DNA from: a virus
Lineage: Duplodnaviria > Heunggongvirae > Uroviricota > Caudoviricetes
Reading direction: 5' to 3' (one strand)
Length of the DNA stretch: 46,219 nucleotides
IMG/VR virus record: IMGVR_UViG_2706794662_000004
This document shows positions 1 to 46,219 of the stretch, one piece after another (the stretch's first letter is position 1; each line of letters opens with the position of its first letter). The notes below the pieces were generated by a model, which saw only the letters and a list, made by a program, of their open reading frames with translations, had not been told where the DNA came from and made no database searches. The translations under genes and the position numbers were made by a program.

Positions 1-108
1 AATTTGTTCCTTGACTTTGTTCTATAAATCAGCACATAATTCCCCATTATACGCGCGTATAATGGGGAATTATGTGCTGATTTATAGAACAAAGTCAAGG
101 AACAAATT
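1..108. repeat. Left telomere palindrome (hairpin telL read through the turn); centre at 54/55 within tatacgcgcgtata
   Basis: Positions 1-108 are a perfect inverted repeat around the centre; the core cccattatacgcgcgtataatggg resembles the N15 telO/telRL core; telN lies immediately adjacent. Confidence 0.7.
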
Positions 109-245: not shown

Positions 246-2159
246 ATGAGCAAAGTAAAAATCGGTGAATTAATAAACTCACTTGTTAGCGATGTTGAGT
301 CAATAGATAACTCTGACCGTCCTCAAGGGGAAAAAACAAAAAAAATAAAGGCTGTTGCATTAAAATTTAAAAATGCATTATTTAATGACAAGCGAAAGTT
401 TAGGGGGAAAGGATTAGAAAAAAGAATTACAGCCAACACATTCAATGCCTATATGAGCAGGGCCAGAAAACGGTTTGATGATAAACTTCATCATAGCTTT
501 GAAAAAAATATACATCGCCTATCTGAAAAGTATCCTTTATATAATGAGGAGCTATTGTCATGGCTTTCTCTACCTGCTGCCGATATTCGCCAGAGAATGT
601 CAACTTTACAGGCAAAATTAAAATTAATTCTCCCTTTATCAGAAGATTTATCTAATATCAGAATTGGTGATAACAAAAATCATAATAAGTTATTAAAATT
701 ATCAAATAAATATAAAGAGTGGCAATTCGCAATTTCTGATTTAACTAGCGATAACTGGAAAGATAAGCGCGATTATTTATATAAATTACTACAGCAAGGA
801 TCTGCCTTGCTTGAGGAGTTGAATCAGCTAAAAGTTAACCATGAGATTCTCTATCATCTTCAACTAAGCCCTGCCGAACGCGCATCTATCCAGCAACGAT
901 GGGCGGACGTTCTGCACAATAAGAAACGTAACGTGGTGGTCATTGATTACCCTAAATATATGCAAGCTATTTACGATATTATAAATAGCCCTGCTACATT
1001 AAATAATCTAAACACTCGTTCAGGTATGGCTCCTTTGGCATTTGCACTTGCTGCATTGTCAGGAAGACGAATGATTGAGATTATGTATCAAGGTACATTT
1101 ACTGTTTCTGGTAAGTATACCGTTGATTTTTTAGGCCAAGCTAAAAAAAGAACTTCTGATGATATAACCAGAAAAATATATACATTATGCGAAGCAAAAA
1201 CATTTGTTTATTTAATAAATGTACTTCGCTCATGCCCAGCAGCATCTGATTTTGATGATGTCGTTAAAGGTTATGGAGATAACGACACACGCTCTGAAAA
1301 CGGACGTATTAATGCCATATTAGCAAAGGCTTTTAACCCGTGGGTTAAATCATTTTTCAAAGATGACCGCCGTGTTTATAAAGATAGTCGTGCTATTTAT
1401 GCCCGTATTGCGTATGAAATGTTTTTCCGCGTAGATCCTCGTTGGAAAAACGTAGATGAGGATGTTTTCTTTATGGAAATTTTAGGCCATGACGATGAAA
1501 ACACTCAATTACACTATAAGCAATTCAAGCTGGCCAACTTCTCAAAGACATGGAGGCCAAATACTGGAAACGAAAATACCAGGCTGGAAGCATTGCAGCA
1601 GCTTGATGACGAAATGCCTGGATTCGCCAGAGGAGATGCCGGGGTTCGTCTGCATAACACAGTTAAGCAGCTGGTAGAGCAGGACCCCTCTATAAAAATC
1701 ACGAACAGCACTCTAAGAGCATTCAAATTTAGCCCAACAATGATTAGCCGATACCTGGAATTTGCTGCTGATGCTCTGGGGCAATTTGTTGGCGAAAATG
1801 GACAATGGCAGCTGAAAATAGATACTCCAGAAATCGTTATGCCTGACGAAGAAGAGCTGGAAGCAATACCTGAACAGACGGATGAATTATCAGATGATGA
1901 CGATCTGGATGACGACGAAATTGAGATAGAGGAAGAGGAAGAGGAAGAGGAAGAGGAAGAGGAAGAGAGCGTAGAAGAACAGCAACCGCCCGCGCCTTCT
2001 TCACCTGTATCTAAGCCGGTATTTAAGCCTGTGAGAAATATTGGTGATGGTTCATACGTTGTTGAGTTTCATTATAATGGCCAGAATTATGCTTGGTCCG
2101 GCAGTGCAAACAGCCCTATGTCAGCAATGCAGTTAGCATGGCTGACATATTTCGGATAA
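246..2159 (+). CDS. telN: Protelomerase (telomere resolvase) TelN
   Basis: 637-aa ORF whose N-terminus (MSKVKIGELIN...) and conserved blocks (e.g. RSGMAPLAFALAA, RAIYARIAYEMFF, KQFKLANFS) match my recollection of N15 TelN; it sits next to the telomere palindrome. Confidence 0.9.
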   Translation: MSKVKIGELINSLVSDVESIDNSDRPQGEKTKKIKAVALKFKNALFNDKRKFRGKGLEKRITANTFNAYMSRARKRFDDKLHHSFEKNIHRLSEKYPLYNEELLSWLSLPAADIRQRMSTLQAKLKLILPLSEDLSNIRIGDNKNHNKLLKLSNKYKEWQFAISDLTSDNWKDKRDYLYKLLQQGSALLEELNQLKVNHEILYHLQLSPAERASIQQRWADVLHNKKRNVVVIDYPKYMQAIYDIINSPATLNNLNTRSGMAPLAFALAALSGRRMIEIMYQGTFTVSGKYTVDFLGQAKKRTSDDITRKIYTLCEAKTFVYLINVLRSCPAASDFDDVVKGYGDNDTRSENGRINAILAKAFNPWVKSFFKDDRRVYKDSRAIYARIAYEMFFRVDPRWKNVDEDVFFMEILGHDDENTQLHYKQFKLANFSKTWRPNTGNENTRLEALQQLDDEMPGFARGDAGVRLHNTVKQLVEQDPSIKITNSTLRAFKFSPTMISRYLEFAADALGQFVGENGQWQLKIDTPEIVMPDEEELEAIPEQTDELSDDDDLDDDEIEIEEEEEEEEEEEEESVEEQQPPAPSSPVSKPVFKPVRNIGDGSYVVEFHYNGQNYAWSGSANSPMSAMQLAWLTYFG

Positions 2160-4179: not shown

Positions 4180-4371
4180 TTACTCCCCGTTCACCGAAAA
4201 ATCACGATAGAAACGTTTCCACATACGATAAGTCTGCGCGAGTTGTTCACCACGAAACATCGCCTTCCTGGCCTTCATGTTTTCCTTGTGAGACTTTCGA
4301 TCTATGAACCAAAACCATTGCTGGAACACACAAAGCAAGAGACACAAAGATAATATCCACTGATTACCCAT
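4180..4371 (-). CDS. Small membrane protein (63 aa) translationally coupled to repA
   Basis: Internal Met (MGNQWILSLCLLLCVFQQWFWF...) whose ATG at 4371-4369 overlaps the repA stop codon; the longer 102-aa reading overlaps repA by 125 nt. Confidence 0.35.
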   Translation of the reverse strand: MGNQWILSLCLLLCVFQQWFWFIDRKSHKENMKARKAMFRGEQLAQTYRMWKRFYRDFSVNGE

Positions 4372-7300
4372 AGAAAGCGCCCTGCTCTTCGTAGCTGCAT
4401 GAGCTATTCCCGGTAATGTATTCTCGTAACCGCCGCAGTTCATTGCTGGACAAGTGATCCATGAACTCTGTGAGGTACAGAGATGCAAACGTCATAGCTA
4501 TGCTGGTTGATGACCATGATGACATAGTGGCCAGCTCCTCACCGGAAAGCGCACTCATCGCCCAGGACTCAGGAACAGCCACCGGCAATACGGCCAAAGC
4601 CTCAGAAATTACTGAATGAGGGGCGTTTTGAACCTGCTCGTTTGTGGATCGCGTTTTATCATCCATATATATATTGAGATCCAAATCGCGATCCATTTCG
4701 ATGGCTGTCTTCTCGGCTTTACGCGTTTTTAGGGTTAGGCCATCTTTCTGACGCTGAACAAGAATATCCAGCATAAATGCCGCTGATTCAGGCTCAACAA
4801 AACGCAAGGTTGGACGCTTATCGCCGTCTCTGCCGCGACGTTTACCTGTTTTAAGGCCAAGAGAGTCGCAAATGTTTTTAAACAACGCTTCCGGCACTTT
4901 AGGCTTCCCTTTTGGCGTCATAAAACCACCAATGTGCAGAACGTTATTCAACAGGTCACGGCGTTCGGCTGTCATGAGATTATCTCGAGCGAATTTGAGA
5001 CGCTCCTGAGTCGCCTCGCCGGTCATAGTCTCAGGGTTGATACCGCAGTCGATAAAGTACTGCCGGAGAGTTGCTGATTTAAGCGCATAGAAACCGCGCG
5101 CCCCGACTTCAACAGTAGGAGTAGCTTTTACCTTGTGATCGATTATTCCAGGGAATTTAGTTTTAAAGACATCATCAGCCTGCTCGCGAGTCATCGCGGT
5201 CACTACAAAATATTGCCACTGTCCCGCCTGACGGTATGCGTAGGTAAAATTGATGGCTGCTTCTTCCCGGTCGTAACGACGAGCTGTTACCTCATCTAAA
5301 AGCATTGTTTCATAGCGGCGAACTTTGTCTCGAGCACCATCGAAATAGAATTTCAGTGTGCCTTCTTCAACCGGTAGTTTCAGTTCGTTTTCAATATCCC
5401 AGCGGACAAGTTTTGCCTGTTCTTCAAGCGTCAGCGCGCGTTTTTTTAGCAGTTCTTCACGCTCTGATTCTTGTGGAGTTTCTGTATTGAGGTGCAGATC
5501 CAGTGTCTGTTCCCACACAATATCCCGCGCTTCTTTACGCAGATCTTTACCGATATCATTCGCAGCATAATCGGTGCCCAGCGGCGATACCTTATAACCG
5601 TCGCTGTGCATGATGCAGATCATGTTGCTGGCGTAGTCGTTACGCGCAGTCGCTTCAATTGCGGCTGCTTTAATTTTCATCCTGGTAAAGTCGGTATTGG
5701 CCACCCCCATTGATATACGGTCGCCATCGAAAATGACATCCGTCAGTTCACCGTTCATACCTGCGGTAGCAAGCAATGCCTGGGCGAATGCTCGTTCTAT
5801 TTTTTGCGGGTCAGTTTCACGTTTTGCACGAGCTTTATCAAAGCCGATAATAAATTCTTTTGCTGTACGGTCGCGGCGTAGCATTTGCACTGCGTCGCTG
5901 GGTACAACTTCACCACAGAACATGCCGAAATGACGGTCAAAATGTTTTTGCTCAATCGACACGCCGGATGAAATAGACGGGCTATAAATCAGGCCGTCGT
6001 ATTTTTTGACCATCTTTTTCGGTTGATTGGTAAATGCTTCAACTTCTGGCTCTGGTTTGTTTTTCTGGTTTACACACAGAAATTTCTTACCAGGAAAATG
6101 CATTCTCAGGGTGGCTGTCACATCTTCTGCAAAGGTGGAGCTGTCGGTGGCCAACATGATTTTTTCGCCATCCGATACAGCTTTCACCACCTCGGTCATG
6201 ATGCGATCTTTTTCTGTATAAAAAACCCGGATTGGCTCACCTGTTTCGCGGTTGCGAACATCAACAGGTAATTCAATTACGTGGATCTGCAGCCATGCCG
6301 GTAAACCTAGTTCTTCACGGCGTTTCATAGCCAGTTCAGCCAGGTCAACCAGCAGATCGTTCGCATCAGCATCCACCATGATTGGGTGTTGTTCCGTTCT
6401 GGCCAGCGCGTCAATTAGCGTATTGAATACAGCCACCGGGTTTTCCATAGCCCGACCGGAAAGAACGGCACGTAGCCCTTGTGTGGCCTCGTCAAAGCCA
6501 AAATAGTCGTGCTGGCGCATCAACGGTTGCCAGCAGTTTTTAACAATCGAGTTTATGCAGATGGTCAGTTTACTGGCGTATGGAGCCATTTCCTGATAGC
6601 CAGGGTCCTGATAGTGCAGGATATCGGCTTTTACACCTTTTCCTTCAGTCATCATTTCCCACAGGCCACCAATAAGGGAAACACGGTGAGCTACAGAGAT
6701 ACCGCGTTCTGAGCTATGCATTAACGGTCGTAACAATCCAGTAGATTTGCCGGAACCCATACCAGCACGAACGATGACGATCCCCTGTAGTGATTGCACG
6801 TACTTCAGGACGTCATCGGTCATTACCGAAGTTTCAAAACGCTTATAGGTGATATGTTGAGGGCGTTTATTGGGATCAGTTATGCGTTCGCTGAAAGAGC
6901 GCGGAGCCTGGGCAATACGGCACTTTTTATTCAGGCGACGGGCAATGTGGTCTTTTACCGTAGCGCGATAGATATTTTCCAGCCCCATTTCACGCAGAAC
7001 GATGCAGAACATGTTAAACAAATCTGACGGACTGTTAGGAACCGGACAGGTTAGCATGCCAATATCCACCGCTCTCAGCAGCTCTTTGGCAAAAGTACGA
7101 CGGTTATCCCGCTTAATTGTCTTCAGGCGGTTGAGCGTCAGAGATAGCAAATCAGTGCCGGTTTTCAGGCGGTTTGCTGTTGCAAATAGTTGACGTGCTG
7201 TTTCACGAAGTCCACGTAGTTTGTGCAGGTCGTTGAAGTCACTGCACTCCATTTGCGGATCGTCTTCAAAAGTTGGATAGACGCAGCGGACATCGTTGAA

Positions 7301-8359
7301 TTTCGATAAGATTTCATAGCCAGTCCGCAGGCCGGTATTCCCTTTTCCTTCTGTGGCTGATTTCCGGTCATTATCCAGTGCGCAGGTGATTTTTGCCGCC
7401 GGGTACATGTTTACCAGTTGTTCCACAACATGAACCATGTTGTTAGCGGATACAGCGACAACCACAGCGTCAAAGCGTTTATCTTTTTTCGTGGCAAGCC
7501 AGATGGATGCACCAGTAGCAAAACCTTCTGTAACAGCGATGTTTTGCGCCCCTTTCAGCTCACCGATAACAAAGCAGGCACCGACGAAATCGCCGCTGGT
7601 TACTGCGCTGGTCTGGTATTTCCCACCTTGTTTGTCGATTCGCTGCCAACCCACAATACGACCATCGTAACGACCGTCCAGGTGAGCCAGAGGGATAGCC
7701 ATATATGTGGTTGGCCCCCGGTTCCATTTCGCACTGTCGTGACTGGTCACGCGACGCACATCACATGAACTAAAAACGTCACGAATACCTTTTTTAATCG
7801 CATATGGCCATGAGCCGTCTTCTGCAGGAGCATGTTCCCACGCGCTGTGGAATGCCAGCCATCCCAGCAAACGTTCATGGTCCATTTGGTTGTTTTTCAG
7901 GTCATTAATTCGTTTTTGTTCTTCACGGCGACGACGTGCTTCGGCCTGACGTTTTATTCTTGCCCGTTCTTCTTCCGGTTGTGCGACCACGGTCGCATTA
8001 TTCCGTTGTTGCTCACGGCGATATTCAGAAAACAGGAAGGAGAAACCGCTCCATGAGCCAGCATCGCTGCCTTTATGGACGAAGTTAATGAACGGGTAAT
8101 CAATCCCTTTGCTGTGTTCCAGCCGAGAGTAAATTTCTACGCGTCCTTTGAGGCTCTTTTCGAGAGCTTCTGGAGATGTTTTATTGTATGAAGAGTAACG
8201 CTCAACACCCCCGCGAGGGTTGAGTTGGATGTTGTCGGAACAGGCAGACCAGTTGATACCAGCCATCTGTGCCAGCTCGGTTAGTTCATCCCGTGCTGCT
8301 TCAATTAGCGAGAACGGATCGCTGCCAAAGCGATCCGCATAGAAATCGTTTAATGTCAT
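4364..8359 (-). CDS. repA: Multifunctional replication protein RepA (primase-helicase, 1331 aa)
   Basis: Size close to N15 RepA (about 1324 aa as I recall); Walker A GMGSGKST in the central helicase part; position upstream of the cB immunity region as in N15. Confidence 0.85.
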   Translation of the reverse strand: MTLNDFYADRFGSDPFSLIEAARDELTELAQMAGINWSACSDNIQLNPRGGVERYSSYNKTSPEALEKSLKGRVEIYSRLEHSKGIDYPFINFVHKGSDAGSWSGFSFLFSEYRREQQRNNATVVAQPEEERARIKRQAEARRRREEQKRINDLKNNQMDHERLLGWLAFHSAWEHAPAEDGSWPYAIKKGIRDVFSSCDVRRVTSHDSAKWNRGPTTYMAIPLAHLDGRYDGRIVGWQRIDKQGGKYQTSAVTSGDFVGACFVIGELKGAQNIAVTEGFATGASIWLATKKDKRFDAVVVAVSANNMVHVVEQLVNMYPAAKITCALDNDRKSATEGKGNTGLRTGYEILSKFNDVRCVYPTFEDDPQMECSDFNDLHKLRGLRETARQLFATANRLKTGTDLLSLTLNRLKTIKRDNRRTFAKELLRAVDIGMLTCPVPNSPSDLFNMFCIVLREMGLENIYRATVKDHIARRLNKKCRIAQAPRSFSERITDPNKRPQHITYKRFETSVMTDDVLKYVQSLQGIVIVRAGMGSGKSTGLLRPLMHSSERGISVAHRVSLIGGLWEMMTEGKGVKADILHYQDPGYQEMAPYASKLTICINSIVKNCWQPLMRQHDYFGFDEATQGLRAVLSGRAMENPVAVFNTLIDALARTEQHPIMVDADANDLLVDLAELAMKRREELGLPAWLQIHVIELPVDVRNRETGEPIRVFYTEKDRIMTEVVKAVSDGEKIMLATDSSTFAEDVTATLRMHFPGKKFLCVNQKNKPEPEVEAFTNQPKKMVKKYDGLIYSPSISSGVSIEQKHFDRHFGMFCGEVVPSDAVQMLRRDRTAKEFIIGFDKARAKRETDPQKIERAFAQALLATAGMNGELTDVIFDGDRISMGVANTDFTRMKIKAAAIEATARNDYASNMICIMHSDGYKVSPLGTDYAANDIGKDLRKEARDIVWEQTLDLHLNTETPQESEREELLKKRALTLEEQAKLVRWDIENELKLPVEEGTLKFYFDGARDKVRRYETMLLDEVTARRYDREEAAINFTYAYRQAGQWQYFVVTAMTREQADDVFKTKFPGIIDHKVKATPTVEVGARGFYALKSATLRQYFIDCGINPETMTGEATQERLKFARDNLMTAERRDLLNNVLHIGGFMTPKGKPKVPEALFKNICDSLGLKTGKRRGRDGDKRPTLRFVEPESAAFMLDILVQRQKDGLTLKTRKAEKTAIEMDRDLDLNIYMDDKTRSTNEQVQNAPHSVISEALAVLPVAVPESWAMSALSGEELATMSSWSSTSIAMTFASLYLTEFMDHLSSNELRRLREYITGNSSCSYEEQGAFYG
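7982..7997. promoter_or_regulatory. 16-bp perfect palindrome TGCGACCACGGTCGCA, candidate SopB centromere site (copy 1, inside repA)
   Basis: Exact palindrome, one of five copies; resembles the F sopC core TGGGACCACGGTCCCA. Confidence 0.5.
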
Positions 8360-8604: not shown

Positions 8605-9201
8605 TCATCTACCCTCAACCATGAATGATTTGATCGTTCCGACTATTTGGTGAACAAATTCAAGATCGCTTTTCCTGAAGATGGCGCGTTGTGAATTTGT
8701 TCCGTCCAGATAGTAATTTTCATCATCAAAACGGGCCAGGCGCTGGATGGTGATATTTCCTGCAGTATCACGAACCAGAACATCCTCGCCGGGGACCAGT
8801 TCCAGCGCAGAATCGACCAGGAGAAAATCGCCAGGCTGATAGTTTCCCTGCGCCAGATTGCTGATAGTTAACGCATAAACAGTATTGCGCTGGCTGATGA
8901 ATGGCAGGAATCGCTCAGTATTTGGAACCTGTCCTGGCTTCCACTCTTCATCAGGTCCACTTTCAGTTGTGCCAATAACAGGAATGCGATCAGGGTCATA
9001 TTCTGTCCCATACAGCACCCAATGCACTGGCTTGCGTAAGCATTTAGCCAGGGCAATACCTATCTCCAGTGACGGCATTACGTCGCCACGTTCTAAGTTT
9101 TGGACGCCTGCAATAGAGATATCGACAGCCTCAGCAACTTCTCGCAACGTCAGCTTCATCTCTAAACGGCGTGCTTTCAGTCGTTCGCCTCGTGTTTTCA
9201 T
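8605..9201 (-). CDS. cB: Prophage repressor CB (HTH plus S24 LexA/CI-like autopeptidase domain)
   Basis: 198-aa ORF with N-terminal HTH (LTLREVAEAVDISIAGVQNLERG) and a C-terminal CI/LexA-like domain; divergent from a cro-like gene across an operator region. Confidence 0.85.
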   Translation of the reverse strand: MKTRGERLKARRLEMKLTLREVAEAVDISIAGVQNLERGDVMPSLEIGIALAKCLRKPVHWVLYGTEYDPDRIPVIGTTESGPDEEWKPGQVPNTERFLPFISQRNTVYALTISNLAQGNYQPGDFLLVDSALELVPGEDVLVRDTAGNITIQRLARFDDENYYLDGTNSQRAIFRKSDLEFVHQIVGTIKSFMVEGR

Positions 9202-9223
9202 AGCTTAATCATAAATGATCTTC

Positions 9224-9264
9224 TTATAGCTGGCTATAAAATTTATTTATTATAGCTGGCTTTA
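9224..9264. promoter_or_regulatory. Operator/promoter region between cB and cro with repeated TTATAGCTGGCT sites
   Basis: ttatagctggctataa (9224-9239, near-palindrome) and ttatagctggcttta (9250-9264) in the divergent intergenic region. Confidence 0.5.
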
Positions 9265-9292
9265 ATTGTTGTTTATTGTTTATAATAACAAC

Positions 9293-9514: not shown

Positions 9515-10214
9515 GTATATACGCAGCTGCGTCTCTACGGCATTGGCTGATGTTCATTATCGCCAGCGTGGCATTCTGGAGGTCCAGCTTGAGCAGATGC
9601 GTCTCGGTAGATCAGGACGGTTTAACAATAAACCAGTCCGGTCAATCAGTGTGGGGGATGATAACTCATACGAAGTGTCCGTTCCTGCTGAGCCGGTTAG
9701 ATTCCACCAGGGGAAAACATTTAAACAATCATCAATGTTGCTCACTGATATTGATTTTCAGAGCGCCAGCTGGCGCAGGGCTATTGGTCAGTTGAATAAC
9801 GAGGAATCAGCCTGGCTTTATTATTGCTACGGATGCAAGCCTGATTACAACAATGATGTGATTGTTTGTCAGTGGTTATGGCTTGATTTTCTGGTTGCTC
9901 ATTCGGGGGGCGGCTTTAAAAAAATGAAGGCCTCCACGAAAAAAGCCATGCGGAAATTGATTTATTACGCGGCACAGCAGGTTAAATCAGAACTTACGTG
10001 TGCTGAGGCAGTTGATGAGAGAGAACAGGACAGGCATCTGAGTCTTCTACTGAATATATCTATTGATAGCTGGAGACAAGATTATAAAGAACGCTGGCTT
10101 TTAATTAAGTCGCGATGTCTGAGCTTAAATCGAACTGCATTATTAAATGCGGCGGAGAAGCGCAGTGAAATCATCAAACGCCATCGGGCAGGAAGTGCCA
10201 TTCTGCCTTTGTAA
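9504..10214 (+). CDS. Putative late-gene regulator (Q antiterminator position), 236 aa
   Basis: Positional inference only: third gene of the cB-cro-Q arrangement reported for N15 immB; no motif confirmed by eye. Confidence 0.3.
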   Translation: MELEYIRSCVSTALADVHYRQRGILEVQLEQMRLGRSGRFNNKPVRSISVGDDNSYEVSVPAEPVRFHQGKTFKQSSMLLTDIDFQSASWRRAIGQLNNEESAWLYYCYGCKPDYNNDVIVCQWLWLDFLVAHSGGGFKKMKASTKKAMRKLIYYAAQQVKSELTCAEAVDEREQDRHLSLLLNISIDSWRQDYKERWLLIKSRCLSLNRTALLNAAEKRSEIIKRHRAGSAILPL

Positions 10215-10221
10215 ACAAGTT

Positions 10222-10467
10222 ATGTTCAGGAAACCGTCGAAGCCAGAATTAAGGTATTCGGGGGTAAGAAATGAATATGTTATCTGGTGTCCAACTTGTG
10301 GTTACAGGACACGACCAGATAGTAATAAGCAGTCTGTAATTGCCGATTGGTATTTATCAAATCAGCCAGGTAATAAGCATATAGAAAATCTTTGGATTAA
10401 GCGTTACTTGGAAATCAGAGAGGGTGCGACCGTGGTCGCACAAGAAAATGAAAATAACGCCATTTAA
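10222..10467 (+). CDS. Small Cys-containing protein (CPTCGY), unknown function
   Basis: ORF starting at internal ATG 10222 immediately after the previous stop; contains palindrome copy 2 in its 3' end. Confidence 0.35.
   Translation: MFRKPSKPELRYSGVRNEYVIWCPTCGYRTRPDSNKQSVIADWYLSNQPGNKHIENLWIKRYLEIREGATVVAQENENNAI
10425..10440. promoter_or_regulatory. 16-bp palindrome TGCGACCGTGGTCGCA (copy 2)
   Basis: Exact palindrome, same family as 7982, 14806, 17816, 18036. Confidence 0.5.
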
Positions 10468-12999: not shown

Positions 13000-13242
13000 A
13001 TGGATAAAAAGGCATTGCTTTTTGAAATGATACGAAAACGGAGCGAAAAGAGCTTTTCTGATGGTGGTGATGGGTTTGTTTTCGCTTCTATGCTTGCTTT
13101 TGATGTTGGGTTAAATAGCAGAATTGTTAAAAGGATGCTTGATTCTGCTGTCCGTGATGGGCTTTTGGAAGTGGTTGGGCGAGGAGTAGGAAGGGAACAT
13201 AAGTATCGGACTACAAAGATATTTAACCAGTTAATCTATTGA
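13000..13242 (+). CDS. Hypothetical protein (80 aa)
   Basis: ORF with GGAGGG RBS. Confidence 0.5.
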   Translation: MDKKALLFEMIRKRSEKSFSDGGDGFVFASMLAFDVGLNSRIVKRMLDSAVRDGLLEVVGRGVGREHKYRTTKIFNQLIY

Positions 13243-13243
13243 A

Positions 13244-13286
13244 AGTTGGCTATAAAATTTGAGTTTTACCCTGTAATTTTATACAG
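13244..13286. promoter_or_regulatory. CB-operator-like site (gttggctataaaattt) plus LexA box CTGT-N8-ACAG (13271-13286) upstream of a small gene
   Basis: tggctataaaattt matches the cB/cro operator repeat at 9231-9244; ccCTGTaattttatACAGta matches the LexA consensus TACTGT-N8-ACAGTA at 17/20. Confidence 0.55.
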
Positions 13287-14799: not shown

Positions 14800-14805
14800 A
14801 AACTG

Positions 14806-14821
14806 TGCGACCACGGTCGCA
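14806..14821. promoter_or_regulatory. 16-bp palindrome TGCGACCACGGTCGCA (copy 3)
   Basis: Exact palindrome in the intergenic region upstream of the methyltransferase gene. Confidence 0.5.
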
Positions 14822-16238: not shown

Positions 16239-16511
16239 ATGAAGATGGATGAACGATACAGCAGTGCATCTTATGGTAGCGCTGGTCTTGCTGCGTTCTT
16301 TGCCAGCCTGTCATTGCAGGATTGGGGCTTCATTATCGGTGTCGCGTTCAGCATTATCCTCGGTGTGCTTACATACCGGCTCAATAAACGCGAGCAGATG
16401 AAGCGCACGAAGATATTGCAGGACATATTGGATAAAACTAATACCAATAATCTTTCTGCTACAGCGATGGTTATTGGAGAGCTGGGGAAGAGAGCACCGA
16501 AGGAAATATGA
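16239..16511 (+). CDS. Holin (two predicted TM helices)
   Basis: 90-aa ORF with hydrophobic segments [12 protein letters not shown] and [15 protein letters not shown]; its stop overlaps the endolysin start. Confidence 0.5.
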
Positions 16512-17008: not shown

Positions 17009-17442
17009 GCAGGGTAACCGCGATTATCTCCGCTCTGGTTATTTGCATCATCGTCTGCCTGTCGTGGGCTGTTAATCATTACCGTGATAACGCCATCGCC
17101 TACAAAGAGCAGCGCGATAAAGCCACATCCACAATCGCTGATATGCAGAAGCGTCAACGTGACGTAGCAGAACTCGATGCCAGATATACAAAGGAGCTTG
17201 CTGATGCTAACGCGACTATCGAAAGCCTCCGTGCTGATGTTTCTGCTGGGCGTAAGCGCCTGCAAGTCGCCGCCACCTGTGCAAAGTCAACGACCGGAGC
17301 CAGCGGCATGGGCAATGGAGAAAGCCCAAGACTTACAGCAGATGCTGAACTCAATTATTACCGTCTCCGAAGTGGGATCGACAGGATAACTGCGCAGGTT
17401 AACTACTTGCAGGAATACATCAAGACGCAATGCCTGAATTAA
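17005..17442 (+). CDS. Rz: i-spanin Rz
   Basis: N-terminal TM then coiled-coil; sequence very close to lambda Rz as I recall it; start overlaps the endolysin stop (ATGA). Confidence 0.75.
17204..17389 (+). CDS. Rz1: o-spanin Rz1 (lipoprotein) embedded in the +1 frame of Rz
   Basis: Signal peptide with lipobox (FLLGVSAC) followed by a Pro-rich mature region, entirely inside Rz. Confidence 0.6.
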
Positions 17443-17795: not shown

Positions 17796-17815
17796 AAATC
17801 TCTTTGTTTCTCGTT

Positions 17816-17831
17816 TGCGACCGTGGTCGCA
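17816..17831. promoter_or_regulatory. 16-bp palindrome TGCGACCGTGGTCGCA (copy 4), immediately left of repeat element copy A
   Basis: Exact palindrome. Confidence 0.5.
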
Positions 17832-17842
17832 CATTAAATACC

Positions 17843-18015
17843 GCGCTGCATCGTCGCCGTATTTCCGCATTAACCATGACCGTAGCCCGACGGGGAACTC
17901 CTCTGCGCGAGTGTGCGGAAATAATCAAAAACGATGCACACCGGGTTTTTACCGCGCTAATGATTCGCGGGTTTGTCCCTCATGCTCGCCAGTCCTGTGC
18001 GAGGGTGGAAGAAAC
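17843..18015. repeat. Noncoding repeat element, copy A (about 173 bp, about 90 percent identical to copy B)
   Basis: Aligns base-for-base with 19628-19801; contains conserved stems (ccgtagcccgacgg; accgcg-loop-cgcggg with variable loop; ccctcatgctcgc...gcgaggg). Confidence 0.6.
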
Positions 18016-18035
18016 AGGGCATGTATTCAGGAGCG

Positions 18036-18051
18036 TGCGACCGTGGTCGCA
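18036..18051. promoter_or_regulatory. 16-bp palindrome TGCGACCGTGGTCGCA (copy 5), immediately right of repeat element copy A
   Basis: Exact palindrome, 25 bp upstream of the RBS of the 286-aa cargo gene. Confidence 0.5.
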
Positions 18052-19061: not shown

Positions 19062-19511
19062 ATGCAAGAAGAAGCAAATAAAATTCTTGTTGATTTATTG
19101 AAGAAGGCCAGCGATGGAATTGATTCCGCCATTGTATTCAGTCAGGCTCAAATTCCGGATGTTGTTCATCAGTTGCTGGTATGGAATATGGTTGATAGCC
19201 TGATTAAAACATTAATAACCATTTCAACAATTCCGCTGGTTATTTGGTTTATGAAGAAACAGTGCAAAAAAGTTGAAATTGGTAAGTTCGATAATGAAGG
19301 ACGCTCATGCGATAATGGACAGCCTAAATACAAACCAACTATGCTTTGGGAAAGTGACGGTAGGTTAAGTGGTTTTGTCTTACCATTAGTAGCAGTTTTT
19401 ATTCTATGGTTCAGTTTTATTATTTCTGTAGTAGCCAATATGACATGGTTAAAAATTTGGCTGGCACCTAAGTTATATCTAATCGAATACGCAGCATCAC
19501 TAATTAAATAG
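19062..19511 (+). CDS. Membrane protein with two predicted TM helices (149 aa), second gene of the cargo cassette
   Basis: Hydrophobic segments LITISTIPLVIWFM and GFVLPLVAVFILWFSFIISVVA; AT-rich. Confidence 0.6.
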   Translation: MQEEANKILVDLLKKASDGIDSAIVFSQAQIPDVVHQLLVWNMVDSLIKTLITISTIPLVIWFMKKQCKKVEIGKFDNEGRSCDNGQPKYKPTMLWESDGRLSGFVLPLVAVFILWFSFIISVVANMTWLKIWLAPKLYLIEYAASLIK

Positions 19512-19627
19512 TCCATTACAAAAGCCATTCGCTACTGAGTGGCTTTGATAATGGCTTATACCCTACACGGGATAACTTAACTGATATCCCTTTTAACGGA
19601 TAAAGGTATTCAAGCCTGACACATCAT

Positions 19628-19801
19628 GCGCTGTATCGTCGTCGTATTCCCGTCTTAACAGAGACCGTAGCCCGACGGGGAACTCTTTCTGCGCGAGTGT
19701 GCGGGAATAATCAAAAACGATGCACACCGGGTTTTTACCGCGTTTATGGTTCGCGGGTTTGCCCCTCATGCTCGCCAGTCCTGTGCGAGGGTGGAAGAAA
19801 C
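19628..19801. repeat. Noncoding repeat element, copy B, immediately upstream of cos
   Basis: Aligns with 17843-18015; the 68-aa track ORF at 19697-19903 lies inside it but conservation is at nucleotide level. Confidence 0.6.
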
Positions 19802-19869
19802 CGGATATTAATGCAAGTGATAAACATTCTCATTTTCTCGGGTCCTTTCCGGCGATCTGACAGGCTACG

Positions 19870-19881
19870 GGGCGGAAGGCG
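19870..19881. other. cosN, predicted 12-nt cohesive end GGGCGGAAGGCG; cosB-like repeats follow to about 20050
   Basis: Flanks caggctacg and cgcgggttttcgctatttatgaaaattttccggtttaaggcg match my recollection of the lambda cos region; the central 12-mer differs from lambda GGGCGGCGACCT. Confidence 0.55.
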
Positions 19882-20058
19882 CGCGGGTTTTCGCTATTTA
19901 TGAAAATTTTCCGGTTTAAGGCGTTTCCGTTCTTCTTCTCCGTAACTTCATGTTTTTATTTAAAACACCCACTGAAAAGAAAGGAAACGACAGATGCTGA
20001 AAACGGGCTTTTTGGCCTTTGTCGTTTCCTTTCTCTGTTTTTGTCCGTGGAATGAACA

Positions 20059-20578
20059 ATGGAAGTCAACAAAAAGCAGCTGGCTGATATTTTCGGTGCG
20101 AGTATCCGTACCATTCAGAACTGGCAGGAGCAGGGAATGCCCGTTTTGCGAGGCGGTGGCAAGGGTAATGAGGTGCTTTATGATTCTGCCGCCGTCATAA
20201 AATGGTATGCCGAAAGGGATGCTGAAATTGAGAACGAAAAGCTGCGCCGGGAGGTTGAAGAACTGCGGCTGGCCAGCGAGGCAGATCTTCACCCCGGAAC
20301 ACTTGAATTTGAGCGCCATCGCCTGACTCGTGCTCAGGCGACGGCGCAGGAACTGAAAAATGCCAAAGAATCGGCTGAAGTGGTGGAAACCGCATTCTGT
20401 ACTTTCGTGCTGTCGCGTATAGCAAGGGAAATATCCAGTATTCTCGACGGTATTCCTCTGTCGGTGCAGCGACGTTTTCCTGAGCTGGATAACCGGCATA
20501 TTGATTTCCTGAAACGGGATATCATCAAAGCCATGAACAAAGCAGCCGCGCTGGATGAACTGATACCGGGGTTGCTGA

Positions 20579-20604
<26 letters not shown>
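20059..20604 (+). CDS. nu1: Terminase small subunit (lambda Nu1-like)
   Basis: N-terminus MEVNKKQLADIFGASIRTIQNWQEQGMPVLRGGGKGNEVLYD matches recalled lambda Nu1. Confidence 0.9.
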
Positions 20605-24285
<3,681 letters not shown>

Positions 24286-39581: not shown

Positions 39582-42500
39582 ATGGCAGTACGGATTTCAG
39601 GTGTACTGAAAGATGGCGCAGGTAAGCCGATACAAAACTGCACCATTCAGCTAAAGGCCAGGCGCAACAGCACCACGGTGGTGGTGAACACAGTGGCCTC
39701 AGAAAACCCGGATGAAGCCGGGCGTTACACAATGGACGTCGAGTATGGTCAGTACAGCGTCAGTCTGTTGGTGGAGGGATTCCCGCCGTCACACGCCGGG
39801 ACCATCACCGTGTATGAAGATTCCCGACCCGGTACGCTGAATGATTTTCTCGGTGCCATGACGGAGGATGATGCCCGTCCTGAGGCACTGCGCCGTTTTG
39901 AACTGATGGTGGAAGAGGTGGCGCGTAACGCGTCCGCGGTGGCACAGAACACGGCAGCCGCGAAGAAGTCAGCCAGCGATGCCAGCACATCAGCCCGTGA
40001 GGCGGCAACCCATGCGACTGATGCTGCAGGCTCAGCACGCGCAGCCAGCACGTCAGCCGGACAGGCCGCGTCGTCGGCTCAGTCAGCATCTTCCAGCGCA
40101 GGAACGGCATCAACAAAGGCCAGTGAAGCATCGAAAAGTGCTGCTGCTGCAGAGTCCTCAAAAAGCGCGGCAGCTACCAGTGCCGGTGCGGCGAAAACGT
40201 CAGAAACGAATGCGGCAGCGTCACAACAATCAGCAGCCACTTCTGCATCCGCCGCGACCACGAAGGCGTCAGAAGCAGCCACCTCAGCCCGGGATGCGGC
40301 GGCCTCAAAAGAGGCAGCGAAATCATCAGAAACGAACGCATCATCAAGCGCCAGTAGTGCCGCTTCCTCGGCAACGGCGGCAGGCAATTCCGCGAAGGCG
40401 GCAAAGACGTCTGAGACAAACGCCAGGTCTTCTGAAACGGCAGCGGGACAGAGCGCCTCGGCTGCGGCAGGCTCAAAAACAGCGGCTGCGTCGTCTGCCA
40501 GTGCCGCGTCAACAAGTGCCGGGCAGGCCTCAGCCAGTGCCACCGCCGCCGGAAAATCGGCAGAAAGCGCCGCATCGTCTGCTTCAACAGCCACAACGAA
40601 GGCTGGCGAAGCCACTGAACAGGCCAGCGCAGCAGCAAGGTCTGCTTCCGCAGCGAAGACATCCGAGACGAACGCGAAAGCGTCGGAAACCAGCGCAGAA
40701 TCCTCAAAAACGGCTGCCGCATCGTCCGCCAGTTCGGCGGCGTCATCGGCATCATCGGCGTCTGCTTCAAAAGATGAGGCGACCAGACAAGCGTCCGCAG
40801 CGAAGGGCAGCGCCACGACGGCATCCACGAAGGCGACAGAGGCAGCTGGCAGTGCGACGGCGGCAGCACAGAGCAAAAGTACGGCGGAATCCGCGGCAAC
40901 GCGCGCCGAGACAGCGGCAAAACGGGCAGAGGATATTGCATCCGCCGTGGCGCTTGAGGATGCAAGTACGACGAAAAAGGGGATAGTACAGCTCAGCAGT
41001 GCGACCAACAGTACGTCTGAAACGCTGGCGGCAACGCCAAAGGCAGTAAAATCAGCCTATGACAATGCAGAGAAACGTCTGCAGAAAGACCAGAACGGCG
41101 CTGATATACCCGATAAGGGACGCTTCCTGAACAACATTAACGCGGTCAGTAAAACAGACTTTGCTGATAAGCGTGGTATGCGTTATGTGCGGGTTAACGC
41201 TCCTGCAGGTGCAACATCTGGAAAATATTACCCTGTTGTTGTTATGCGTTCTGCTGGCTCAGTAAGCGAACTGGCATCAAGGGTCATTATCACCACGGCA
41301 ACGCGAACCGCAGGCGATCCGATGAATAACTGCGAGTTTAACGGATTTGTTATGCCTGGTGGCTGGACTGACAGGGGGCGTTATGCTTATGGAATGTTCT
41401 GGCAATATCAAAACAATGAACGAGCCATCCACTCAATAATGATGAGTAATAAGGGCGATGATTTGCGCTCTGTGTTCTATGTTGATGGCGCTGCTTTCCC
41501 TGTTTTTGCGTTTATCGAAGATGGCCTGTCAATATCCGCACCTGGTGCTGATCTCGTTGTTAATGATACGACCTATAAGTTTGGGGCAACAAATCCGGCG
41601 ACTGAATGTATCGCGGCGGACGTTATCCTTGATTTTAAGAGTGGGCGTGGTTTTTATGAGTCTCATTCGTTAATCGTTAACGATAACTTGTCGTGCAAAA
41701 AACTTTTTGCCACAGACGAAATTGTAGCGCGTGGTGGTAATCAGATTCGAATGATAGGTGGGGAGTATGGGGCATTATGGCGTAATGATGGCGCTAAAAC
41801 TTACCTGCTGCTTACCAATCAAGGTGATGTTTATGGTGGCTGGAATACATTAAGACCGTTTGCTATTGATAACGCAACCGGCGAACTGGTTATTGGAACC
41901 AAACTGTCCGCAAGTCTGAACGGTAATGCATTAACAGCAACAAAGCTGCAAACGCCAAGACGGGTTTCTGGTGTTGAGTTTGATGGTTCCAAAGATATTA
42001 CTTTAACCGCCGCGCATGTGGCTGCTTTTGCCAGAAGGGCAACGGATACATATGCCGATGCGGATGGTGGCGTTCCCTGGAATGCCGAATCAGGCGCTTA
42101 TAATGTCACCCGCTCTGGCGACAGCTATATTCTGGTTAACTTCTATACCGGAGTCGGAAGTTGCCGGACCTTGCAGATGAAGGCGCATTACAGAAATGGT
42201 GGTCTGTTCTACCGTTCTTCAAGAGACGGTTATGGTTTTGAGGATGACTGGGCAGAAGTTTATACCTCGAAAAATCTTCCACCAGAAAGCTACCCAGTCG
42301 GCGCACCAATCCCGTGGCCATCAGATACCGTTCCGTCTGGTTATGCCCTGATGCAGGGGCAGACTTTTGACAAATCTGCTTACCCGAAACTTGCAGCCGC
42401 TTATCCGTCAGGCGTGATCCCTGATATGCGTGGCTGGACGATTAAGGGCAAACCTGCCAGTGGTCGGGCCGTATTGTCTCAGGAACAGGACGGCATTAAA

Positions 42501-42980
42501 TCGCATACCCACAGCGCCAGCGCATCCAGTACAGATTTGGGGACGAAAACCACATCGTCGTTTGATTACGGCACTAAATCCACGAATAACACTGGTGCGC
42601 ATACCCATAGTTTAAGTGGCAGCACGAATGCAGCTGGTAATCACAGCCATAGAGATGGCCGTCGATTTAACCCCAGTGTTTTTAAAGATACTTATCAATA
42701 TGGTTATACAAGCTCAGGTCAAAATACCTGGGGTGTACAAGGCTCAGTAGGTATGTCTACGGGGTGGTTAGCGAATACCAGTACAGATGGTAATCATAGC
42801 CATTCACTGTCCGGCACAGCAGCATCTGCAGGTGCACACGCGCATACTGTCGGTATTGGTGCTCATACGCACTCCGTTGCGATTGGTTCACATGGACACA
42901 CCATCACCGTTAACGCTGCTGGTAACGCGGAAAACACCGTCAAAAACATCGCATTTAACTATATTGTGAGGCTTGCATAA
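39582..42980 (+). CDS. stf: Side tail fibre protein Stf (1132 aa)
   Basis: N-terminus [38 protein letters not shown] and His-rich C-terminus (HSHSLSGT ... [15 protein letters not shown] ... [11 protein letters not shown]) match recalled lambda Stf. Confidence 0.85.
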
Positions 42981-43555
42981 TGGCATTCAGAATGAGTGAA
43001 CAACCACGGACCATAAAAATTTATAATCTGCTGGCCGGAACTAATGAATTTATTGGTGAAGGTAACGCATATATTCCGCCTCATACAGGTCTGCCAGCAA
43101 ACAGTACCGATATTGCACCACCAGATATTCCTGCTGGCTTTGTGGCTGTTTTCAACAGTGATGAGGCATCGTGGCATCTCGTTGAAGATCATCGGGGTAA
43201 AACGGTTTATGACGTGGCTTCCGGCGACGCGTTATTTATTTCTGAACTCGGTCCGTTACCGAAAAATGTTACCTGGTTATCGCCGGAAGGGGAGTTTCAG
43301 AAGTGGAACGGCACAGCCTGGGTGAAGGATACGGAAGCAGAAAAACTGTTCCGGATCCGGGAGGCGGAAGAAACAAAAAACAACCTGATGCAGGTAGCCA
43401 GTGAGCATATTGCGCCGCTTCAGGATGCTGTAGATCTGGAAATCGCAACAGAGGAAGAAACCTCGTTGCTGGAAGCTTGGAAAAAGTATCGGGTGTTGCT
43501 GAACCGTGTTGATACATCACTATCTCCAGATATCGAGTGGCCAAGTCAACCATAA
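42980..43555 (+). CDS. tfa: Tail fibre assembly protein Tfa
   Basis: [28 protein letters not shown] matches recalled lambda Tfa. Confidence 0.85.
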
Positions 43556-43560
43556 ATCAA

Positions 43561-43583
43561 TATCCCCTGCAATGCAGGGGATA
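43561..43583. terminator. Bidirectional hairpin between tfa (+) and sopB (-)
   Basis: tatcccctgcaatgcaggggata perfect hairpin between convergent genes. Confidence 0.45.
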
Positions 43584-43587
43584 GTTC

Positions 43588-44553
43588 TTAATTATCAGTA
43601 GATTGTTCCTCTAGTAACAACTCAATTCTGCTTAGTATTTCTTTAGATATTTTGCGGCTATCAATTTTTATAGTTACAAAATTACCTTTATATCTAGCCG
43701 TGATCCCTTCCCCATATTTTTTCTCGTCTTTTGTTTTTTCCTCGTCGCCAACCAGAACAGAGTCAGATAATATTTGTATAATCCGTGAAGCTTCTAAATC
43801 CTCGCCGTTTTTTTTAATTACTAGAAGATGATGAGCAGCATTGCTCATGGCAGCCATGTTTTTTTTGTAAACCTTAAACAAAGAATCTCCAGCACGAGCT
43901 GACAGTTCTCCTGGATGATTGAAGATAGCTAATATATCTTTTGGTAGACCAGCTGTATTAATACAGCGAGTGATAATATTTCTATCTATATTTTCAGCCT
44001 CGGCTAATGCTTTAACGTTACCATCAAAGTCATTTAGCTTGCGTAAGTATCTCTTTCCTCTTTCGTATGCACTAATAGGTCTATAATCGTTACCAATTTG
44101 GGATAACCAATGCATCTGTTCATCGTCGAGATCACCAATTAAGACGCGATAGTCACATCCTGTTAATATCGCTGCTTTTCTTCTACGTGAGCCGTCAGCG
44201 ACTTCAACGATTCCAGATACTTTTCTGGCGAAAGCTGGATTTTGTTGTCCAGACGTTAGAAAAGATGGGATTAAATCGGCTAGAGAGGATTCATTTAATA
44301 AATCTTGATCGCGTTCATTACCTAGCCATACCATTGTTGCCATTTCAACTTTATCTGCGGGAATTGTCTCTAACTTAAAGTTAACATTACGTCCGCATAC
44401 TGGCAAAGTTATGCTGTTACCGGTTAATGAACTCAGTTGACGTTTTAAATCACCAACCATAGGTGATACGGGCTGATGTTCAGGGGCATGATGATTATTA
44501 CTCATAATGCGATTAATATCTGGAGCATTTTTTAGAAGAGAGCGCTGTTTCAT
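43588..44553 (-). CDS. sopB: Partition protein SopB (ParB family)
   Basis: 321-aa ORF immediately downstream of and overlapping sopA; ParB-like features. Confidence 0.75.
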   Translation of the reverse strand: MKQRSLLKNAPDINRIMSNNHHAPEHQPVSPMVGDLKRQLSSLTGNSITLPVCGRNVNFKLETIPADKVEMATMVWLGNERDQDLLNESSLADLIPSFLTSGQQNPAFARKVSGIVEVADGSRRRKAAILTGCDYRVLIGDLDDEQMHWLSQIGNDYRPISAYERGKRYLRKLNDFDGNVKALAEAENIDRNIITRCINTAGLPKDILAIFNHPGELSARAGDSLFKVYKKNMAAMSNAAHHLLVIKKNGEDLEASRIIQILSDSVLVGDEEKTKDEKKYGEGITARYKGNFVTIKIDSRKISKEILSRIELLLEEQSTDN

Positions 44554-45719
44554 TATTCGTTCTCCCAGCGAGGTTTTATTAGATCATCAAAAATTTCTCG
44601 GCAAACAGGGTCCCATATAGAAACAGCATTTCTCCATGCATTCAATGTTGAACGTTGGTTTGCTGCTTGTTCAAATACTGTTCTCATTTTTATCTGGCCT
44701 TTACCTACTTCATCGGTAACGCGTACAACCTGACGTAATACCATTGATCCCCATGTATTTCTTATTTGTTCTTCCATCCATCGTGATTGATTCCCTGTAG
44801 TGAGACTATATTTAGTCAGAAGTAAGCGAACGGTTGGCTCAAATCCACCTAGGTCAACGCTTTCCAATAGATCGAGAAGCATTGTGAAAAACTGTAGAAC
44901 AGAAGCGTAATCAAATAATTCTGCAGGTGTAGCAACAACAATAACGTCAGCGGCACAAACAACGTTAATGGTTCCTGTACCGAGGTTCGGAGCACTATCT
45001 ATAACGATAACATCGTAGTTATCCCAAACTGATTCAATAGCTGCGCGCAGCATAAGGTGTGGAGGATGAGGCAATTTACCCTGAGCATGATATTGCATGA
45101 GATCTGTTTCTATACGATGTAAGGCTAGGCAGCTAGGGATAATGTCTAGCCCAGGCCAACATGTTGGCTTTATAGCATATTCAGCGTTATCGCGTTCTCC
45201 TAAGTAAAATGGCAGTAAAGTATCCTCGGCATGGATATGTAAATCAGGAACATAACCGTGATACATAGAGGCCGTGCCTTGAGGATCGTTACCTTCAACC
45301 AAAAGAACACGATGACCTTGTAATGCTAACCATTGAGCTTGATGTACCGCAGACGATGTTTTATAAACGCCGCCTTTGTGTGACATAACGGCAAGCACAA
45401 CAGGGTTTTTATCTTGTGGTCGTTGGTTTGGGTTGCCAAAAACTGCTCGCATACTGTTGATTTGATCTATGGTATAACCAGCACGACGTTCAATTCTTCC
45501 TCTCATTTCAAAGTCAGGTGCAGGTAAACGCCCGCTCTTCTCAGCATCTCTAATTGCTTGAGGAGTTACACCAATTAAATCTGCTACTTCAGTTATACCC
45601 CATCGGCGGGTGATACGCCGAGCTTCAGGACTATCATCACCGAATTGAGCGATAGCAATTGCTTGGGTCATTTCTTGACCTCTCGTAACACAATCTTGCA
45701 ATAACTTTTTCAAAGACAT
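44553..45719 (-). CDS. sopA: Partition ATPase SopA (ParA family)
   Basis: 388-aa ORF with Walker A KGGVYKTS and N-terminal HTH; extensive identity to F SopA as I recall it. Confidence 0.9.
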   Translation of the reverse strand: MSLKKLLQDCVTRGQEMTQAIAIAQFGDDSPEARRITRRWGITEVADLIGVTPQAIRDAEKSGRLPAPDFEMRGRIERRAGYTIDQINSMRAVFGNPNQRPQDKNPVVLAVMSHKGGVYKTSSAVHQAQWLALQGHRVLLVEGNDPQGTASMYHGYVPDLHIHAEDTLLPFYLGERDNAEYAIKPTCWPGLDIIPSCLALHRIETDLMQYHAQGKLPHPPHLMLRAAIESVWDNYDVIVIDSAPNLGTGTINVVCAADVIVVATPAELFDYASVLQFFTMLLDLLESVDLGGFEPTVRLLLTKYSLTTGNQSRWMEEQIRNTWGSMVLRQVVRVTDEVGKGQIKMRTVFEQAANQRSTLNAWRNAVSIWDPVCREIFDDLIKPRWENE

Positions 45720-45994: not shown

Positions 45995-46132
45995 CCTTAC
46001 AAATATAAGAACACAAATACAGAACATAAAAACCAAGTAATAACACAAACACAATAAAGAACACAAATAAAGAATTAAAACAAATGTTAAACAAAACAGT
46101 ACGCAAACTGAGAACATTACATTAAATAAGAA
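45995..46132. repeat. Cluster of AGAACA(C/T)-type direct repeats next to the right telomere
   Basis: At least six copies of agaaca within about 140 bp; the left telomere-proximal region (110-160) carries the complementary tgttct motif. Confidence 0.4.
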
Positions 46133-46218
46133 CACTAATTAAGAACATAACGAAACATAATTCCCCATTATACGCGCGTATAATGGGGAATTATGTTTCG
46201 TTATGTTCTTAATTAGTG
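46133..46218. repeat. Right telomere palindrome (hairpin telR read through the turn); centre at 46175/46176
   Basis: 86-bp perfect palindrome sharing the same 40-bp core as the left end but with different outer arms. Confidence 0.7.
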
Positions 46219-46219
46219 T

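Follow-up and report, generated by a model that had tools for sequence, protein, structure and literature searches.

Does the perfect palindrome at the left end of this viral sequence mark a genuine hairpin telomere, and if so, where does the replicon itself begin and end? The window analyzed here is the whole 46,219-nt stretch of IMG/VR record IMGVR_UViG_2706794662_000004, read 5' to 3'. A sequence-only reading of it had proposed that positions 1 to 108 are a palindrome centered at 54/55. Indeed, positions 1-54 pair with 55-108 at 100% complementarity and without a spacer, around a dyad at 54/55 that lies within TATACGCGCGTATA. Folded as ssDNA, this segment forms one hairpin (-57.5 kcal/mol; z = -20.5, with none of 200 shuffles as good), and by our own arithmetic the chance expectation for a 54-nt perfect arm is about 1e-28 over about 46,000 centers. 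Another perfect palindrome occupies the right end (46132-46219), where 44-nt arms (46132-46175 and 46176-46219) meet at the dyad 46175/46176. Besides these two terminal palindromes, a scan of every center in the window found zero perfect palindromes with an arm of at least 10 nt. Each palindrome runs right up to the edge of the contig, and the lengths of 108 and 88 bp therefore reflect the contig boundaries rather than the DNA itself.

We consider it highly probable that the window represents an N15-like telomere phage of Escherichia coli, complete and in its plasmid-prophage form, as a linear 46,121-bp duplex with covalently closed hairpin ends. The first 54 positions repeat the telL end, its bottom strand being read past the hairpin turn, and are not extra duplex DNA: this wrap-around copy (1-54) is the reverse complement of 55-108 and ends at the contig edge, and the arm at the same dyad ranges from 18 nt to 8.5 kb elsewhere. 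The telL arm proper (55-108, + strand) begins at the true duplex start, position 55; it is colinear with the right half of N15 telRL and identical to the telL side of the fused telRL in the metagenome contig L009. At the other end, the telR arm proper (46132-46175, + strand) closes at the true duplex end, position 46175, and is followed by its own wrap-around copy (46176-46219), the reverse complement of 46132-46175, which runs to the contig edge. Since 1-54 and 46176-46219 are complementary strand read twice, the replicon measures 46,121 bp and not 46,219; the dyad-to-dyad spacing of 46,121 nt is the replicon unit length, and the other 98 nt are wrap-around.

Identity between the two ends reaches just 21 nt to either side of the dyad, beyond which they diverge completely. 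They thus share a 42-bp palindromic core (34-75, with a second copy at 46155-46196). In the fused telRL of the closest relatives, the perfect arm is likewise 21 nt, and this 42-bp core is the sole intrinsically palindromic part of the fused site. Within it lies a telO-type 22-bp core, CCATTATACGCGCGTATAATGG (44-65), identical to N15 telO, and the CGCGCG at the left dyad (52-57) would be the 6-bp interval between the staggered protelomerase cuts that forms the hairpin tip. Cleavage at a 6-bp spacing is common to all known protelomerases, and in the TelK target CGCGCG separates the scissile positions (PMC3558466). A search with the 22-mer CCATTATACGCGCGTATAATGG returned 37 IMG/VR stretches, N15 among them; in GTDB genomes, it returned only one stretch, in Pseudocitrobacter.

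Joining the right end (to 46175) to the left end (from 55) reconstructs a telRL that aligns without gaps to N15 telRL (NC_001901 24775-24830, annotated cut 24802/3), with 45 of 56 positions identical. The 22-bp telO and the central CGCGCG are the same in both, whereas the perfect palindrome of the fused site is 42 bp here compared with the 22-bp core in N15. The joined telR-telL sequence is found as fused telRL in L009, in pAH01-1 (NZ_CP055252), and in several IMG/VR contigs. The window therefore holds a palindromic telRL/telO target beside telN, with CGCGCG between the predicted scissile positions.

The gene telN (246..2159, + strand) encodes a protelomerase of 637 aa, identified by Pfam, by a PDB match, and by its identity to the N15 and PhiR46_1 proteins. 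All of the TelN Pfam domains, TelK_N, TelK_muzzle, ResT-TelK_cat, and TelK_stirrup, score above cut-off. Residues 1-536 match the TelK structure PDB 2v6e with E = 5.9e-295, and Tyr424 aligns to the catalytic Tyr. The protein is 77% identical to N15 TelN and 99% identical to PhiR46_1 TelN, and the exact same protein is present on 21 other contigs. The sequence-only reading had placed telN 140 bp from the palindrome: the gene does adjoin it, but the distance needs adjusting, as the ATG (246) lies 137 nt from the palindrome end and 191 nt from the dyad, compared with 192 nt from dyad to ATG in N15. Taken with the N15-identical telO core, this intact TelN nearby, and the same-dyad inverse duplications in independent assemblies described below, the proposal that the left end is a hairpin telomere read through its turn is borne out. 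As a separate observation, a GAGGAA tandem repeat at 1923-1964 in telN encodes a poly-Glu tract in the C-terminal region, whose length is 4 residues off that of PhiR46_1.

Both tel arms continue into short repeats. On the telL side (83-170), GAACA occurs at 87 and 100 and TGTTC at 113 and 151, which is the layout found to the right of N15 telRL. On the telR side (46008-46147, + strand), six AGAACA repeats lead toward the telR dyad, starting at 46008, 46021, 46058, 46111, 46129, and 46142. Six of the 30 + strand AGAACA motifs of the window thus fall within 226 nt, where about 0.15 would be expected, and N15 also has the AGAACA motif left of telRL. In N15, the tos flanks carry degenerate copies of the L3/R3 motifs (PMC12624138), and the AGAACA-type repeats here probably correspond to the degenerate repeats L1/L2/R1/R2 of that tos region. 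Separately, a promoter-like TTGACT-18 nt-CATAAT (10/12) lies on the - strand from 98 to 69 and is mirrored on the + strand at 11-40; this is a consensus match only. It faces the dyad, that is, toward sopA across a fused telRL and toward the tip in the hairpin form. A promoter and terminator scan of positions 1-400 placed sites inside the palindrome only and gave no convincing telN promoter. A 25-nt inverted match between 191-215, upstream of telN, and 45683-45707, inside the start of sopA, was judged to be within chance for 46 kb.

From end to end, the gene order is that of the N15 prophage map: telN, repA, cB, the Q region with lysis genes, cos, heads and tails, and sopBA. The replication protein gene repA (4364..8359, - strand; 1331 aa) encodes an N15-type RepA by protein identity (75% over 1319 aa to N15 gp37 RepA), and its Pfam matches, to Toprim and an origin-binding helicase, are weak. 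A CB-type repressor with HTH and S24 peptidase Pfam domains is encoded at 8605-9201. The terminase gpA gene (20579-22504), the portal, and the tape measure were found by Pfam, with tail genes after them. Next to telR lies the partition operon on the - strand, sopB (43588-44553) and sopA (44553-45719), for which Pfam gives matches to SoPB_HTH and to ATPase families of the ParA type; SopA and N15 gp28 share 93% identity. Alongside SopAB, the window has five dispersed 18-bp palindromes of the form GTGCGACC(AC/GT)GGTCGCAC, at 7980-7997, 10423-10440, 14804-14821, 17814-17831, and 18034-18051, compared with four SopB centromere-type sites in N15. The N15 SopB centromere sites IR1-IR3, as printed in PMC7205306, equal the GTGCGACCnnGGTCGCAC consensus of the five sites here.

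Two repeat families in this part of the map are recorded as side observations. A TATAGCTGGCTATAA-like motif occurs in four copies (9218-9270, 10058-10084, and 13234-13260), two of them in tandem between the CB-type repressor gene and a divergent ORF that corresponds to a putative repressor in the colinear PhiR46_1; these copies are placed like the CB operators annotated in N15. A direct repeat of about 190 nt (17843-18029 and 19628-19815, two adjacent blocks 86% and 91% identical) brackets 17.8-19.8 kb between the lysis genes and cos and may mark a cargo or recombination module.

The position of cos bears on which form of the phage the window represents. We located the cos region by reading 19500-20100: a lambda-like region at about 19840-20040, just upstream of Nu1/terminase, contains a putative cosN, GGGCGGAAGGCG, at 19870-19881 (+ strand), read directly. 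Its likeness is to what we take to be the lambda cos flanks, and the putative 12-nt cohesive end GGGCGGAAGGCG presumably differs from that of lambda at several positions. A search of the window for the lambda cosN GGGCGGCGACCT with at most 2 mismatches gave one match, which is at chance level. With cos intact and internal, the window corresponds to the plasmid permutation rather than that of the virion. The ends agree: telRL is split between the two ends of the window, the arms differ outside the 42-bp core, and cos lies inside at about 19.87 kb. These features are consistent with the linear plasmid form that had been proposed from the sequence.

How does this element relate to known phages? 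Among the closest relatives is PhiR46_1 (PV340565.1, host ECOR13; 46,290 bp), which is colinear with window positions 44 to 46186 and is annotated with telL (1-22) and telR (46269-46290). This end-to-end colinearity with a record annotated from telL to telR indicates that the window is one complete replicon in the plasmid permutation. The earlier suggestion that the window represents the whole replicon is thus right as to content, but the length has to be corrected to 46,121 bp once the 98 nt of wrap-around are removed. PhiR46_1 and a group of ~46-kb "protelomerase family" plasmids of E. coli, Shigella, and E. fergusonii, including pAH01-1, RL465 plasmid III, and pEC21Z151-46K, are 95-99% identical over most of the length (about 96-97% over ~91% of the window). 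The sole segments in which PhiR46_1 is not colinear are 39932-43873, the side-tail-fibre/cargo module, where the difference is probably a host-range or cargo swap, and, slightly, 17122-17405. Over the 2.3 kb at the right end, identity to PhiR46_1 falls to 89%, against 96-98% to other plasmids, which suggests mosaicism at the sop-telR end. The morphogenesis half is ~97% identical to lambdoid phages such as PhiR34_1, Kati, and ev099, while N15 (Ravinvirus N15) has ~76% nucleotide identity over only ~20% of the left 20 kb. A search of the phage, plasmid, and E. coli collections gave no identical record, the best matches being 97-99% identical. Judged from these comparisons, the window is an isolate or variant of the described N15-type telomere phage-plasmids, and its telomere is of a known kind; the sequence features that define the N15 type are all found here apart from the outer 14-bp box of the telR arm, which takes a variant form.

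The same chemistry is known from other replicons, which resemble this one to different degrees. TelK of the Klebsiella phage phiKO2 (PDB 2v6e) has the same four domains (N, muzzle, catalytic, and stirrup), a conserved catalytic Tyr, and the same CGCGCG, but phiKO2 has another host and another genome, with ~74% nucleotide identity over about one-third of the left arm. ResT of Borrelia and TelA of Agrobacterium are also tyrosine-recombinase-like enzymes that make 6-bp cuts, form hairpins, and resolve palindromic junctions, and the hairpin replicons of both groups leave the same assembly signature, a terminal inverse duplication. However, the ResT and TelA target sequences are unrelated to the one here, and these enzymes serve chromosomes or plasmids rather than phage. 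TelA is without the muzzle and stirrup domains (PMC3558466).

By the model established for N15 and its telLL/telRR intermediates (PMC12624138, PMC10612081, PMC3558466), the window could have arisen as follows. By analogy with N15, virion DNA would circularize at cos (~19.87 kb), and a TelN dimer would bind the fused telRL, cut both strands 6 bp apart around the dyad CGCGCG, and join each cut strand to its own complement, giving two hairpins. Replication would start inside repA and round each hairpin, and the palindromic telLL and telRR junctions formed in this way would again be resolved by TelN. TelN stays bound and protects the tips against SbcCD in N15 (PMC12624138). Here, bound TelN may likewise shield the tips from SbcCD, and SopAB together with the dispersed IR centromeres would partition the plasmid. 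A hairpin end would be one continuous strand, so that reads could run through the turn into the complementary strand; the assembler would then have overrun the real ends by 54 nt on the left and 44 nt on the right, yielding the 108- and 88-bp palindromes. Covalent closure, the activity of TelN on this site, and the route of the reads are predictions drawn from the nucleotide record.

The pattern across public assemblies is what one would expect of such ends. Related assemblies fall into three classes: inverse duplications, fused telRL, and contigs cut near the core edge. The inverse duplications are all centered on the same CGC|GCG step, with perfect arms of 18, 22, 29, 32, 34, 35, 51, 99, and 255 nt and longer ones of 654, 1289, 1506, 1759, 2178, 2817, 3072, 6832, and 8461 nt; this center is the protelomerase cleavage dyad. 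Free variation of arm length about a fixed center is what one would expect of a strand turning back on itself. Genes are mirrored as well: RL465 plasmid III and pEND_Eco123-2 have telN(-)/telN(+) mirrored across the dyad, RL465 plasmid III also has sopA(-)/sopA(+) mirrored at its other end, and IMG/VR L014 is perfectly palindromic throughout (2 x 6832 nt). The fused telRL class has perfect arms from 11 nt (N15) to 29 nt, and the truncated class is exemplified by L011, which stops 22 nt short of the dyad.

Terminal inverse duplications in contigs, and likewise reads that align to both strands at one contig end, have been described as diagnostic of hairpin telomeres, and in Borrelia and Rhizobiaceae the same signature has been used to call such telomeres and to trim contigs (10.1101/2025.07.18.665644; PMC13293297). 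The Borrelia preprint also reports Illumina libraries without coverage across hairpin turns (10.1101/2025.07.18.665644), and if the present contig derives from short reads only, the origin of its wrap-around reads is uncertain. Overrun by a single k-mer was considered as a cause of the palindromes and is unlikely, as the wrap-around arms differ (54 versus 44 nt).

Among the other ways to explain the palindromes, the one that fares best is that the palindromic reads came from unresolved telLL/telRR replication junctions and not from hairpin tips. Such junctions are TelN substrates made in N15 replication (PMC12624138, PMC3558466), their sequence would equal 1-108 and 46132-46219, and the multi-kb mirror duplications of other records fit them as well. 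We nevertheless regard this source as unlikely. From the N15 replication model, telLL and telRR are expected to be few and short-lived, whereas hairpin tips would be on every copy, and wrap-around of hairpins by long reads is a documented and sufficient source (10.1101/2025.07.18.665644; PMC13293297). This explanation would in any case still imply hairpin-telomere biology and would alter only the origin of the reads.

It is far less probable that the palindromes are assembly or library artefacts, such as fold-back chimeras or a palindromic k-mer path, on an element whose true state is a circle with a fused telRL, or integration in the chromosome. The deposited records of several relatives do give a circular topology and a fused telRL, and one relative sits at the start of a chromosome record, that of E. 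coli YDC107. Random fold-back chimeras, however, would miss the one dinucleotide step that recurs at both ends here and in more than 20 independent assemblies made with varied technologies, and that common step is exactly the protelomerase dyad. Opening a circle at telRL would leave ends that rejoin with nothing duplicated, rather than a palindrome at each end with its own outer arm. The sequence-only reading had named, as the finding that would count against it, evidence that the palindromes are assembly artefacts on an element that is circular or lies in the chromosome between unrelated flanks; foreign flanks are absent from the window, and the shared dyad step speaks against artefact. The YDC107 segment itself points to mis-assembly, being a 16.3-kb mirror about the telR dyad that is full of frameshifts.

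We give almost no weight to a linear plasmid capped by terminal proteins in the style of Streptomyces, phi29, or PRD1: an inverted repeat is indeed common to both ends, but it covers only 21 nt from each tip where such replicons have long ones, each end is a perfect palindrome complementary to itself, unlike the ends of terminal-protein replicons, the window encodes a full protelomerase and carries the site cognate to it, the replication protein is an N15-type RepA and not a protein-primed polymerase, and the gene list of the colinear PhiR46_1 record contains neither a terminal protein nor a B-family polymerase.

Returning to the hairpin-ended plasmid form as the preferred reading, its value here is mainly practical. 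N15-type telomere phages, TelN, telRL, and hairpin ends are long established, structurally and biochemically, and the ~97%-identical PhiR46_1 was already annotated from telL to telR, so the biology adds little. What is gained is that the true ends (54/55 and 46175/46176) and the length of 46,121 bp are fixed and that the contig is complete. A terminal inverse duplication centered on telO is also a reliable and easily scanned signature of the plasmid form.

By the same signature, many of the family's public records appear to be mis-described, some as "circular," some as 61-75 kb through wrap-around, and one mis-joined to a chromosome. The last is NZ_CP025707.1 (L008, the E. coli YDC107 "chromosome," 1-32,600), which starts with the frameshift-ridden 16.3-kb mirror, its telR dyad at 16,310. 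The plasmid pEND_Eco123-2 (68,426 bp) is labelled circular and contains an 8.5-kb perfect mirror, and in NZ_CP031108.1 (27,197 bp) the dyad falls midway along the record. Multi-kb wrap-around is also found among NZ_CP126957.1, NZ_CP031108.1, NZ_LT906558.1, and IMG/VR L014. These multi-kb wrap-around records are probably mis-assemblies or mis-labelled topologies. On the other hand, many close relatives are deposited as "circular" with fused telRL, which implies that the element also exists, or is assembled, in the fused form.

One departure from N15 lies in the outer box of the telR arm. The telL outer box is of the canonical L3 type, ATTATGTGCTGATT at 69-82. The telR outer box at 46148-46161 is TAACGAAACATAAT, a variant of the canonical ATCAGCACATAAT that differs from the mirror of the telL box at 5 of 14 positions; the corresponding telR-side box of N15 is TATCAGCACACAAT. 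The (A/T)ATCAGCAC(A/T)... box is present in N15, in PhiR46_1, and in the telL arm of the window itself, but the telR arm is without it, whereas PhiR46_1 has kept the canonical CAGCAC box in telR. The variant TAACGAAACATAAT is not peculiar to this record: at least 10 independent contigs, wrap-around telRR forms included, have it on their sopA side, and it is paired with a TelN that is identical or 99% identical to the TelN of canonical-box elements.

A telRR junction of this lineage would be without the box on both arms and yet be resolved in each plasmid generation, so the box may be dispensable here. We therefore raise, as a tentative and rather doubtful possibility, that this lineage relaxes the N15 need for both outer 14-bp repeats in the 56-bp telRL and that the inner 42-bp core could be enough. 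If true, the AGAACA-type subtelomeric arrays may have another role, for example in TelN loading or in end protection against SbcCD. A telR variant that occurs naturally and has no canonical box offers a small but testable clue to what TelN requires of its substrate.

Position 13 from the dyad had led us to suspect compensatory symmetry between telL and telR: the pair there is C/C for the window, T/T for PhiR46_1, A/A for L010, and G/G for N15, the TelN proteins being near-identical. An obligatory left-right symmetry was rejected, as 8 of 19 distinct fused telRL sequences are asymmetric somewhere within positions 12-17, namely those of N15, L013, L019, L028, L029, L030, L036, and L039.

Finally, two of the fused-telRL records encode a TelN identical to the one here. 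L009 (ENA ERZ18533902 NODE_690) is a metagenome contig of a near-identical element with a very high coverage of ~893, and L010 (GCA_053889035.1) likewise pairs the identical TelN with a fused telRL. The fused telRL of both, together with the coverage of L009, suggests that this phage also circulates in a virion or lytic form.
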